Position numbers: made by a program
IMG/VR virus record: IMGVR_UViG_2537562189_000005
Length of the DNA: 23,143 nt
Strand: one strand, 5' to 3'
From: a virus
Taxonomy: Duplodnaviria > Heunggongvirae > Uroviricota > Caudoviricetes
Part shown: positions 6,001-12,000 of the stretch, in pieces
How positions within the stretch are numbered: position 1 is the stretch's first letter
How the letters are laid out: every line of letters starts with the position of its first letter

Positions 6001-9000
6001 ACATTTTACCCAACAAGTAATATGCTCATTACCAGGGATGGGGTTTTCTGATAACTCATGATGGCAATCTCTGCGAGGAATCGGTTCAGTAGTGCTTATT
6101 GGTACCACTGTTACCAATTGATTGTTGTGTCTGTTTCTGGACACGACTACCACTGGCCTGACCTTGACTATTTCCGGAACAACCATTCCCCGAAAATCAC
6201 ACATTAAAACAGAACGAACAGACGGCTGATACTTTAACACCATAAATCTCTTTGCCTGATAATGACGACTTGTGAACTCCACTACAAACAAAATGATTCT
6301 GCTGAACAGGCAGTTTCGCACTGTACATTATAACCTGTTAAGCCAACAAAAAAACCCGCTCGGCGGCGGGGTTTGCTTACTTTGCCATCGCGTACAAAAT
6401 CGGCAAAATATCAGATTTACATGAAATATATGCTTTTTAATCCAGTTTTGCAATATTTTGCTGTGAAAATGTGGTCTTTTGTTTTGAACGTGTTTTCGTT
6501 AAAAGCAATAAAGCTTGGCTATCAAGCTGTAGAAAAATGTGCTTCATTGCAACCCAGCGTTCAGTAAATGTCTCAGACCAGTTTTTTGATGTCACTCCCA
6601 CCAGTGATGCCAGATCCCGGTATTCATAACCTTCCCCACCAAAAAGCTCAGCTTTTACCGCTTGCGCCGCCAGCCAGATCAACTTCTTCAGACGTTCCAG
6701 CGTTTTCCCAGCTATTTTTCTGGTACCGGATTGAGTATTAAATTCATTCCACGCCCACTGCGTTATCGCAATCTGATACTCCCAGCAAATGTTTCCGCCG
6801 TAACACCACAACAACCACGCCTTCTGATGCGCTTCCAGTTCCAGAACTGCACGTCGCCATGATGATGTCGAAAACTCAACCGGACTGACCAGAGCAATTG
6901 ACGTCCCTTTCGCCAGTGATTGTTTACCCGGGATCGGTGGGTTATCCCGCGTGATCATTTTTCCGGTTACCTCATCGCGGTAACGAATTTTTTTGCGTCT
7001 GTAACGCCCTGTATCGAACAGTGCATTTTCCTGCCAGGCTTCCAGTTGGCCTTTTATCGACACACTGAGATCCGCAGTGGCAATCATGAGTTGCTCACGA
7101 ACAAACTGTAAATACTGGTTATTCATGCACACCCACCTCTGTAATTCTTATCTCCAGCCGTCCACCAGATACTGGCTGGCCACGTACAATATTGATTTCA
7201 TCAAACTGCTCATCGTCCATTAACAACCCTGCATGCGTCAGCGCATCCAGCGGCGCTTTCAGGATATTATCCAGGTCACGGCGGCGCTTATCCGGTGGCT
7301 CTGCAATCACCTTTATCGCCAGCCTTCCGGACAGGCTTAATTTCAGCCGCTGCTGGCGAACAATAAGCGCCACTGCCCGGCGATAGCGCTTTCCCTCCTC
7401 AGATATAAAATATGTGCTGCCACGACGTCGCCAGTAAGTATTCACCGTCGGTGGATAAGGCAAAACAAACTCTATACGCATCAGTAACCTCTTTTACCCA
7501 AGCACGCCGGTTGCAAAGGCGTGATCAAGAAAACGAAAAATTAACTCAACCTGAGAGCCGTACTTTTTCTCAAACTCCAGCGGGTCTGCATGAAGTTCGT
7601 TGTGATGTTCCCGGCACAACGGTAGCGTGAAAATATCGTGGGCCTTTGTCCCCATTCCCCCCTGACCATGACCAATCAGGTGATGCGGATCGTCAGCAGG
7701 CTTACCACAACACGCACACGGCTGTGTCTTTACCCAGCGCGTGTATTTCTCATTAACCCAACGGCGACGTTTAGGCCGCTTCATGAACGATTCAGGAGAC
7801 TCCGGATCAACAGCGATACTGACAACCGTTTTTTTCTGTGGTGGATTTTGTTGCTGGTGGACGTGAAGTGGCAGCGCAATATTTTTTGTGCGCTGCTTCA
7901 GTATGCTGATGGCTGTCTGTTCTCCCGGTACGATGTCACTCTCACGGTATACGGAGCGGATTTTTTCCGCTGGTAATCCCAGCGAACGACGCGCTACTGC
8001 CTCAGGTAATGCATCCACCACCTGATTGCAGGCCGCCCACCAGGATAATTCGGCCAGCGATAATTCACGCTCCTGTGTGCCATTCATTGCGTGACGAATG
8101 ACGTCAATCATCCATGCTGACAGGTTTTGGTGAGCAAGTTGCTCAAGTGATTCGGAGGTCTGGTCACGCAACTGGTTGTCGCAGTGCCAGCACAACACCA
8201 TTGCGCCGGTACCATAACGGTGAATGACGGTTTCACTGTGGTGATAATCGCCGTGTGGCCACTGGCAGGATTTAACATGGCGCAGTAACCAGTCAGACAA
8301 TGCGCCAGCGCCACCAGCAGCACGAATCACTCGTTCGTCGCTGAAAAATGGCAGTAATGATTTATCCTCCGCCAGCGGCTGGCGAACGGCAGGAACGACC
8401 CCGGACGGCAGATTACGCATGCTTTTCGGTTCCGGCTCCACCAGTACCCGGGTATTGTGGAATACCGGCATGGATTCACGGCCCGGCTTAACGATCACCA
8501 GCCCGAGTTCCGGTACCAGAACAGGTCGAAGTAATACCCGCACGTTACCTCCAGATGCGTTGCTGGAATGTGCGGGACGGACGCGGTGGGCGTTCAGAGT
8601 AAGGAAGCCTGACGGAGATTATCCAGTGACGGTAGTCGAGGCTAAGGGCTTTTTTAACCTCGTATCCGCGCCTGCGGTAACACTGAATGAGCCATTCGGC
8701 CTGTTCTTCAGTGCATGGGGGATGCTGGTACCAGTCAGATTTGAATGCGTGAAAACACCGTCTGCGCCTGCTGGCAAAGACGGCTGAATTATCAGAATTG
8801 TGTAATTTGGTATCGTGCGCCATCGGTTGTCTCTGCTGGCGCAGCAGGTGCCAGTTGTTCAGGCTGGTGTGCGAATTGTAAACCAGAATGCTAGGAAAAA
8901 ACAAAACCCGCCGAAGCGGGTTAAGTGCGGGTGCGTTGAGGATGCCTGACACATCAGAGGTGGCGAGGGATTCTCCCCATAAGCGCTAACTTAAGGGTTG

Positions 9001-12000
9001 TGGTATTACGCCTGATATGATTTAACGTGCCGATGAATTACTCTCACGATAACTGGTCAGCAATTCTGGCCCATATTGGTAAGCCCGAAGAACTGGATAC
9101 TTCGGCACGTAATGCCGGGGCTCTAACCCGCCGCCGCGAAATTCGTGATGCTGCAACTCTGCTACGTCTGGGGCTGGCTTACGGCCCCGGGGGGATGTCA
9201 TTACGTGAAGTCACTGCATGGGCTCAGCTCCATGACGTTGCAACATTATCTGACGTGGCTCTCCTGAAGCGGCTGCGGAATGCCGCCGACTGGTTTGGCA
9301 TACTTGCCGCACAAACACTTGCTGTACGCGCCGCAGTTACGGGTTGTACAAGCGGAAAGAGATTGCGTCTTGTCGATGGAACAGCAATCAGTGCGCCCGG
9401 GGGCGGCAGCGCTGAATGGCGACTACATATGGGATATGATCCTCATACCTGTCAGTTCACTGATTTTGAGCTAACCGACAGCAGAGACGCTGAACGGCTG
9501 GACCGATTTGCGCAAACGGCAGACGAGATACGCATTGCTGACCGGGGATTCGGTTCGCGTCCCGAATGTATCCGCTCACTTGCTTTTGGAGAAGCTGATT
9601 ATATCGTCCGGGTTCACTGGCGAGGATTGCGCTGGTTAACTGCAGAAGGAATGCGCTTTGACATGATGGGTTTTCTGCGCGGGCTGGATTGCGGTAAGAA
9701 CGGTGAAACCACTGTAATGATAGGCAATTCAGGTAATAAAAAAGCCGGAGCTCCCTTTCCGGCACGTCTCATTGCCGTATCACTTCCTCCCGAAAAAGCA
9801 TTAATCAGTAAAACCCGACTGCTCAGCGAGAATCGTCGAAAAGGACGAGTAGTTCAGGCGGAAACGCTGGAAGCAGCGGGCCATGTGCTATTGCTAACAT
9901 CATTACCGGAAGATGAATATTCAGCAGAGCAAGTGGCTGATTGTTACCGTCTGCGATGGCAAATTGAACTGGCTTTTAAGCGGCTCAAAAGTTTGCTGCA
10001 CCTGGATGCTTTGCGTGCAAAGGAACCTGAACTCGCGAAAGCGTGGATATTTGCTAATCTACTCGCCGCATTTTTAATTGACGACATAATCCAGCCATCG
10101 CTGGATTTCCCCCCCAGAAGTGCCGGATCCGAAAAGAAGAACTAACTCGTTGTGGAGAATAACAAAAATGGTCATCTGGAGCTTACAGTGGCCATTCGTG
10201 GGACAGTATCCCTGACAGCCTACAAAACGCAATTGAAGAACGCGAGGCATCGTCTTAACGAGGCACCGAGGCGTCGCATTCTTCAGATGGTTCAACCCTT
10301 AAGTTAGCGCTTATGGGATTCTCCCCCGCCTGGTCTCTTACTCCTCAGGTTCGTAAGCTGTGAAGACAGCGACCTCCGTCTGGCCGGTTCGGATTCGTAC
10401 CTCGCAGAGGTCTTTCCTCGTTACCAGTGCCGTCACTATGACGGTTAAACAGATGACGATCAGGGCGATTAGCATCGCCTTTTGCTGCTTCATAGCCTGC
10501 TTCTCCTTGCCTTTCGGCACGTAAGAGGCTAACCTACGTGTGTAGAGCATAGATATGGCCTCAGATTAATGTTAAGCGTCTTGCCGGACGCGTAATGTTA
10601 ACTGGGGCTTTTCTCTATCTGCCTTTTGGTGTTCATGCCTGAGACAGATAGCCTCAAGCACCCGCAGTCATTCTACCCGTTTTAGATTTCTCAGCCAACT
10701 TTATGCTCACAACATATACAAATTTCCCGGTTAAAGCTCATCATGTTAGATAGTTTTTGCGTACGCACTATTTTTTTATGTAAACTGCGCAAAAAAGTTT
10801 AGCACCCTAAATTGTTAAGGGAAAGTTAAGGAAGTGTTAATGCTTGAGCAAACAGTAAAAAACATCAATTCACGCTTTGGCTGGCGCAACACCCGTAAGC
10901 TTCTTGGTTCATCACTGGGTGTAACGGCCCAAGGATTACCCCTTTTTATTGAACGTGTAAATAGTGTAGTTCAGCATAATCCCGACCTAAAAGACAGAAT
11001 CGACGATTTCTGGAAAGGTTTAATTTTTAGCGGGAATCGATTACTTTCTATTTATAGAATCACCGATGAAGACGTAGCAAAATTACAAACAATTTTCACA
11101 AATCAGAAAAAGGACAATAGCCCCTTCTCAGAAAAATACCCAACTCCTTTATCCAGAGAGGAGCTGTTAGTTGCTGATACTGAGCTGCATTTTGCTGAAC
11201 TACGTCAAGATATCATTCGTGATAAACAAATTGACACTGCTGTTTTTTTATCCAAAGCGTATTACACTGAAGTGATAGAGCTTGACCCAACACATCTTAG
11301 CGATGCGGGTATGGAATTACGTGCTAATGGTGGAGAAATAAAATGCAAAACACGCCAAGTCACGCAATGCTTTAATACCATCATGCTAATGCCTGCAGAA
11401 AAATATTAATTCTTACGATTGATTTATCTATCCTTCCAAGAAGTGAATCACAGCCTCAACAATACCTTGTGGCTAAATTTATAAAAAAAGAAGCTGGCGT
11501 TATTTTAAACAATCCTCTTGAATTATTTGGTTCAATACAAGATCTTTACGAAAAAGTAGATGGCAGAATTTCTCATGTATCTTTTATCACCTCAGATGGC
11601 AATACAAGTTCTTTAAAACTCAAACCAAGTCAAAAGTGTTTGCGTCAAGATGTTTACCATCATAGTGGAGAGTCCGCAAGCCCAATATTGACAAAGTTTA
11701 AGTTGGGAAAAATTTGGGATTTACCACAAAGTTCTTCACATATTTTATCAGTAGAGTTAATATTACCAGGAAAAAGGACAATGCTTGATAATCCTAGAAT
11801 TAGGTTGCATGAAGCAATTGCGAAGAACTGTAACAACATTGATTCGATTATATTTATTGTTGAAAAAATATTGGATTCTGTTAAGTCCTGTGAAGAGAAA
11901 AGAAGAGCGAGATCATCAGGCCATAAATGAAAAAGAGTATATATCACGACATTATCACGCAAATAGAGCAGGATTTTAATGATCCTGTTCGCAGTGTGTG

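Follow-up and report, generated by a model that had tools for sequence, protein, structure and literature searches.

We analyzed a stretch of 23,143 nucleotides (nt) from a Caudoviricetes virus record (IMG/VR IMGVR_UViG_2537562189_000005), referred to below as the window, in which a copy of the insertion sequence (IS) IS186 lies just beyond the stop codon of a hokD toxin gene. Judged from its sequence, the hok locus, located in the nin region of a prophage of the lambdoid type, is a complete type I toxin-antitoxin module of the hok/mok/sok kind. The components of the module and of the IS, with positions counted in the window, are the following, where CDS denotes a coding sequence, ORF an open reading frame, mRNA a messenger RNA, aa amino acids and bp base pairs:

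10338-10493, minus strand: hokD toxin CDS, intact, 51 aa (Pfam HOK_GEF, 2.9e-23)
10338-10550, minus strand: mok-type ORF of 70 aa that begins upstream of hok in the same frame (from the ORF list; layout as in the annotated K-12 mokC/hokC)
10488-10663, minus strand: 5' leader of the hok mRNA, with tac at its 5' end, the Sok target and the mok start (Rfam RF01794)
10670-10698, minus strand: hok promoter-like site, TTGGCT, 17-nt spacer, TAGAAT (consensus scan only)
10542-10618, plus strand: Sok antisense RNA gene, intact, with approximate ends (coordinates carried over by alignment from the annotated K-12 sokC)
8978-10315, plus strand: complete IS186 (IS4 family), 1338 bp, with ends set by perfect 23-bp inverted repeats
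8978-9000, plus strand: left terminal inverted repeat of IS186, CATAAGCGCTAACTTAAGGGTTG, 100% complementary to 10293-10315
10293-10315, plus strand: right terminal inverted repeat of IS186, the perfect complement of the left repeat
9033-10145, plus strand: IS186 transposase (InsL), intact, 370 aa, reading towards hok (convergent)
8968-8977, no strand: target-site duplication, copy far from hok, GGATTCTCCC
10316-10325, no strand: target-site duplication, hok-side copy, GGATTCTCCC

The hokD CDS differs from that of Escherichia coli K-12 by one synonymous base, and the encoded protein is identical to K-12 HokD. The match to RF01794, the sok/hok leader family, was full length (model positions 1-157 of 157, 117 bits, E=2e-26) and placed the predicted 5' end of the hok mRNA at ~10663. 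The promoter-like site ends 7 nt upstream of this 5' end, a position that fits the start of the Rfam match. For sok, both a predicted promoter (TTGCCT, 17-nt spacer, TAACCT at 10507-10535) and a predicted terminator, consisting of a hairpin with a U-run, were read from the sequence. The toxin ORF, the leader with mok and the antisense Sok gene of a hok/sok locus are therefore all present, whereas a contiguous 3' untranslated region (UTR) is not: a terminal hairpin, a fold-back-inhibition element (fbi) and a terminator can each be found, but the run is broken after mRNA nt 348 by 1348 bp. The putative promoter, the leader, mok, hok and sok are untouched by the IS186 insertion.

The initial annotation had described an intact IS186 with both 23-bp repeats, an intact transposase and a flanking duplication, inserted 22 bp from the hokD stop codon. 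Each of these features was measured here (8978-10315), and the gap between the stop codon (10338-10340) and the end of the IS is exactly 22 bp (10316-10337). The inverted repeats match over 25 nt once the adjacent duplication bases are counted. The transposase ORF carries Pfam DDE_Tnp_1 (E=1.6e-26) and agrees with K-12 InsL1 at 370 of 370 aa. At the DNA level, the sole difference from the K-12 copies IS186A and IS186B is one G absent after 10187, in non-coding sequence 3' of the transposase stop. The length of IS186 is given in the literature as 1338 bp (PMC3562002), and in the respects that could be tested here, namely length, repeats, InsL-type transposase and target duplication, the element agrees with IS186 throughout. 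Its intact ends and transposase suggest that it is competent for transposition. The target-site duplication is perfect over 10 bp, or over 12 bp (8967-8978 and 10315-10326) if the ambiguous bases at the IS ends are included; the longer reading agrees with the form GG(G)ATTCTCCC(C) reported initially.

When IS186 and one copy of the duplication were removed from the window, the remaining sequence aligned in a single piece, with 99.4-99.8% identity, to IS-free alleles such as those of O145 RM9154-C1 and E2348/69. The uninterrupted site was found, at a query cover of at least 80%, in 3,895 of 5,426 complete E. coli genomes, so the IS is not common to all alleles. The exact IS-bearing configuration was found in only 2 of these genomes, 2013C-3181 and N51. 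An assembly artefact or chimera was ruled out, since two independent complete genomes show identical junctions and the reconstruction restores the empty site exactly. Strain 2013C-3181, which was fetched and aligned, also lacks the G after window position 10187. A second 1-bp loss from its IS186, within the C-run at window position 10109 (~10510 of its locus), frameshifts the transposase, and the gene is annotated by PGAP as a pseudogene. The frameshift annotated in this closest relative is untrue of the window, where the ORF is intact. Because the IS is nearly identical to the K-12 copies, the duplication is perfect and the allele is rare, the insertion at hokD fits a recent event, in keeping with the age first proposed for it.

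In the hok mRNA of plasmid R1, fold-back pairing between tac and fbi holds the full-length transcript inert, and slow 3' processing yields a translatable, Sok-binding form (PMC9841398). We folded the reconstructed IS-free mRNA of the window, a 420-nt sequence that begins at the 5' end set by the Rfam match and finishes with the U-run of the terminator. In its minimum-free-energy fold, nt 1-12 (tac, GGGUGCUUGAGG) pair with nt 375-387 (fbi, CCUCAACGCACCC), a 9-bp GC-rich hairpin is predicted at nt 334-354 (8-28 nt past the hok stop), and a terminator hairpin at nt 394-411. IS186 interrupts the GC-rich hairpin in its 3' arm, after mRNA nt 348, and the 3' elements now lie in the window as follows:

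10322-10330, minus strand: 5' arm of the hok 3' hairpin, GGCGGGGGA, still joined to hok (fold of the reconstructed mRNA)
8962-8970, minus strand: 3' arm of the hok 3' hairpin, UCCCUCGCC, moved 1348 bp off by IS186 (same fold)
8929-8941, minus strand: fbi, CCUCAACGCACCC, now apart from hok (pairs with mRNA nt 1-12 in the predicted fold)
8895-8922 (hairpin 8905-8922), minus strand: intrinsic terminator of the hok mRNA, stem-loop and U-run, now apart from hok (terminator scan and fold)

The fbi, which is conserved across an alignment of hokC, hokD and hokE, is now 1.37 kb from the hok stop. With fbi and the terminator both beyond the insertion, the earlier proposal that IS186 cuts the hok mRNA 3' region off from its fold-back-inhibition element is borne out; the converse possibility, that the fold-back elements lie wholly inside the 22 bp retained next to hok, is contradicted by the same positions. 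Folds computed with and without the IS point the same way. Pairing of tac with fbi was predicted only for the IS-free mRNA, while in models of transcripts entering the IS the 5' end finds its pairing partner nearby, at nt 19-29, and not in the 3' region. The folding energy of the hairpin is -17.3 kcal/mol when intact versus -7.1 kcal/mol for the remnant at the junction. On the hok strand, the first terminator-like site inside IS186 was detected by the terminator scan at 9763-9744. Beyond what the initial annotation had proposed, the hairpin predicted to form the 3' end of the processed, active mRNA is also split.

Mutational work on R1 bears on this second lesion. In that system, 19 of 22 loss-of-function substitutions in the 3' UTR disrupt the terminal stem of the truncated mRNA, and the truncated mRNA was missing in both terminal-stem mutants tested, a loss that the authors ascribe to 3'-to-5' exonucleases (PMC9841398). 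The mutated positions, 13 and 26 nt past the stop (PMC9841398), correspond to the hairpin split here (8-28 nt past the stop). For K-12 gef (hokC), the downstream IS186 is considered to disrupt both fbi and the processing of the mRNA (PMC3562002).

The position of the insertion can be related to the target preference of IS186. Lee et al. defined this target as 5'-GGGG(N6/N7)CCCC-3', a palindrome that accepts the element in either orientation and occurs rarely in the K-12 genome, and sites with one or two mismatches are also on record (PMC5009759). The IS-free target in the window reads, in the hok sense, GGGG-GAGAAT-CCCT (AGGG-ATTCTC-CCCC on the other strand) and has one mismatch in the flanking palindrome. 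In the hok sense the duplication, GGGAGAATCC, consists of the 6-nt core plus 2 nt per side, the same geometry as at K-12 hokC. The IS-free window holds zero perfect motif sites and approximately six distinct sites with one mismatch.

Insertions at homologous hairpins recur widely. Queries spanning the IS-hok junction detected 820 genomes with the orientation seen here and 938 with the opposite orientation, counts that take in clonal inheritance and the hokC locus. Other prophage hok loci carry IS186 at the homologous hairpin, as in STEC308 and LR-64-1, with locus-specific duplications; these junctions were ruled out as the same event as that in the window, as their duplications and flanks differ (GGAGAAATCC). 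Strain 2013C-4991 carries the same hokD allele, and its IS186 (1954-3299 of its locus) points the opposite way and is flanked by an 11-bp duplication; this is an independent hit on the same hairpin. The 2013C-4991 locus has the same neighbouring 92-aa ORF and DUF968 gene as the window, and a SMODS/SLATT gene pair lies nearby. IS186 also adjoins hokD-like loci in P1-like phage-plasmids of ~95-124 kb (1837-3298 and 1953-3298), one in each orientation, with the orientations taken from annotation tables only. More generally, a survey of E. coli lists hok/sok among genes located close to hotspots of mobile-element insertion (bioRxiv 10.1101/527788).

We considered whether this recurrence reflects selection for switching off hok modules, over and above the target preference of the transposase. 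Insertions are present in hundreds of genomes, at several paralogous loci and in both orientations, and in a published survey the disruption of hok/sok by mobile elements is put forward as a possibly common adaptive strategy (10.1101/527788). However, the hairpins fit the rare IS186 motif fully or almost fully, and this alone predicts hotspots used in either orientation without any selection (PMC5009759). Moreover, clonal inheritance swells the genome counts, as with hokC-IS186 in K-12-like lineages, and uninterrupted sites are still the majority. An adaptive origin of the recurrence thus appears possible but rather unlikely. We give considerably less credence to the idea that the hok hairpin is maintained in a shape that also serves IS186 as a landing site, such that IS186 would serve as a recurrent, orientation-independent off-switch for Hok in E. 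coli chromosomes, prophages and phage-plasmids, with a hit frequency set by selection together with specificity.

Two of the closest precedents come from K-12 MG1655, and the IS186 copies at its hokC and hokE loci were reportedly first described by Pedersen and Gerdes in 1999. At IS186A/hokC (gef), as in the window, the IS lies in the homologous GC-rich hairpin ~20 bp past the hok stop and in the same orientation, with its right end next to hok and its transposase convergent; a 10-bp duplication is again present, and fbi and the terminator again fall on the far side. In contrast to the window, hokC is another hok paralogue, located between dnaJ and nhaA and outside any prophage. Its target, GGGG-AGTGAT-CCCC, is perfect whereas that of the window has one mismatch, and its duplication, GGAGTGATCC, differs in sequence, which marks the two insertions as independent events. 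IS186B/hokE shares the hairpin position and a 10-bp duplication with the window but differs in that the IS has the opposite orientation to hok, the paralogue is far more divergent and the locus is not part of a prophage. The suggestion that the window holds a further case of a chromosomal hok locus disrupted by an IS is thus well founded, as hokC and hokE both carry IS186 at the homologous position (PMC3562002).

Two IS-free systems complete the comparison. The hokD (relF) gene of the K-12 Qin prophage encodes an identical Hok protein, with 98.5% DNA identity in the CDS and 96.4% in the 3' region, and shares the ydfU neighbour. The two loci are nevertheless distinct in organization, since K-12 hokD has lost its leader, mok and sok to relBE and carries no IS, whereas the window retains all three and carries the IS; homology to K-12 Qin ends just upstream of the hok ribosome-binding site, where relE starts. 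K-12 also has rem between hokD and ydfU, which the window lacks. With R1 hok/sok the window shares the layout of 5' tac, 3' fbi, a mok reading frame overlapping hok from upstream and an antisense Sok, as well as a GC-rich hairpin just past the stop followed by fbi and the terminator (PMC9841398). Unlike the window locus, R1 hok/sok is plasmid-borne, IS-free and proven to mediate post-segregational killing.

Taken together, these findings argue that the window carries a recent IS186 hit in the hok 3' hairpin that would have disabled the module as a killer while leaving the toxin gene unmutated, a reading to which we assign a probability of roughly 0.8. According to this model, a complete and apparently active IS186 would have transposed into the GC-rich palindromic hairpin past the hok stop, and the likeness of this hairpin to GGGG(N6/7)CCCC would explain where the element landed as well as why such insertions recur at hok loci. 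The hok CDS is parted from fbi and the terminator by 1348 bp, and the hairpin expected to give the processed mRNA its protected 3' end is split. Transcripts started at the hok promoter would enter IS186 at its right end and be antisense to the transposase gene. Such transcripts should be unable to form the tac-fbi fold-back that gives inert, stable full-length hok mRNA, and, as they would also be without the protective 3' hairpin, the stable active species would probably be lost too. The stable reservoir of toxin mRNA for delayed Hok production would then be gone while Sok was still made, and the module would be disabled as a post-segregational or stress-triggered killer despite its unmutated toxin gene.

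Several observations weigh against this interpretation. The functional outcome for the window allele is inferred from homology and thermodynamic folds, and the target site is one mismatch off the IS186 motif. The K-12 gef/hokC transcript, with IS186 in the same orientation, reportedly ends in the IS ~200 bp past the stop and is still regulated by its antisense RNA (PMC3562002); since that transcript is made and regulated, transcription and Sok control evidently survive such an insertion, and residual toxicity is possible. In addition, the IS-free loci hokA of E. coli C and hokC of ECOR24 gave no post-segregational killing in earlier work, as cited in 10.1101/2025.08.07.668861, and the IS-free ancestor of the window allele may accordingly have had little activity to lose.

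These same observations feed the main rival to a disabled module, namely that the insertion is functionally neutral. In this alternative hok is transcribed, its mRNA ends within the IS and Sok controls it, so that the behaviour of the locus, which may have been hardly active at all, is unchanged; the intact promoter, mok, hok and sok of the window fit such a scenario, as do the gef transcript and the chromosomal loci that failed to kill. Two points are difficult to reconcile with neutrality, however. In R1, a single base change that weakens the homologous 3' stem is enough to eliminate active mRNA and toxicity alike (PMC9841398), and the stem of the window locus is broken in two; furthermore, the fbi partner of the mRNA 5' end lies 1.35 kb away. 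We regard neutrality as improbable, and slightly more so than an adaptive origin of the recurrence. Lastly, although the 5' end loses its long-range pairing in predicted folds without fbi, and removal of the 3' end activates translation in the R1 model (PMC9841398), it is very improbable that loss of fbi created a constitutively translatable hok mRNA and raised HokD production, since the activated form is also the one that binds Sok, sok is intact, the protective 3' hairpin is destroyed, at least two more sequenced strains carry the allele and K-12 tolerates its equivalent at hokC well. We therefore retain a disabled module with an unmutated toxin gene as the preferred reading.

Downstream of hok on the same strand lie a 92-aa ORF, a DUF968/ydfU homologue, and then rusA and Q. 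The two genes nearest the insertion are:

8545-8823, minus strand: 92-aa ORF beside IS186 (phrog_1212, function not assigned)
7494-8543, minus strand: DUF968 gene, ydfU homologue (protein 86% identical to K-12 YdfU)

The initial annotation held that IS186 parts hokD from rem and ydfU. This is correct for ydfU, given the 86% identical homologue, but not for rem: the 92-aa ORF, the candidate for that gene, was rejected, as neither BLASTP nor tblastn detected similarity to K-12 Rem. The ORF holds the position that rem has in K-12 Qin, and the K-12 DNA there is homologous (84% through ydfU and upstream) with rem as an extra gene. In its uninterrupted form the hok module is common among phages of the lambdoid and Stx types, and 63 phage records were found to cover the site to 80% or more. 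Among the three genes to the right of hok/sok, on the sok side, PADLOC detected nothing convincing as defence and PHROGs assigned only families of unknown function. A tRNA search found no tRNA genes in the window.

Other features of the prophage were observed along the way. A 363-aa phage gene (phrog_12777; 10839-11930, plus strand) is a single intact CDS in 2013C-3181, O145 RM9154-C1 and E2348/69, and the window copy is split into ORFs at 10834-11409 and 11469-11930, because an A-run near 11404 lacks 1 bp relative to 2013C-3181; the split reflects a frameshift or else a sequencing error in the homopolymer. The STnc100 small RNA (Rfam RF02076) is present in two tandem copies, at 2189-2378 and 2442-2638 on the minus strand (141 and 121 bits), and a gene for the antisense small RNA DicF lies at 18556-18607 on the plus strand (Rfam RF00039, 76 bits), which fits a Qin/Rac-like lambdoid prophage. 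Two different Q-type antiterminator genes are encoded on the same strand, at 6838-7527 and 13387-13908 of the 2013C-3181 locus (window ~6437-7126 and 12986-13507), and flank the hok module together with three plus-strand genes of unknown function. The presence of two Q-type genes suggests a mosaic or composite prophage.

IS186 at hok is already known from K-12 hokC and hokE and is common in E. coli, and only the locus, a complete hokD-type module in a prophage, is new. Taken alone, the case carries small weight, as one more well-documented recent landing of IS186 in a hok 3' hairpin. It does indicate that an unmutated hokD in an annotation need not amount to a working toxin-antitoxin system. 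The nearly identical IS-free alleles and the sister allele with IS186 in the opposite orientation are natural variants with which the 3' elements of chromosomal hok could be probed, and the genome-wide counts support the hok 3' hairpin as one of the main natural hotspots for IS186.

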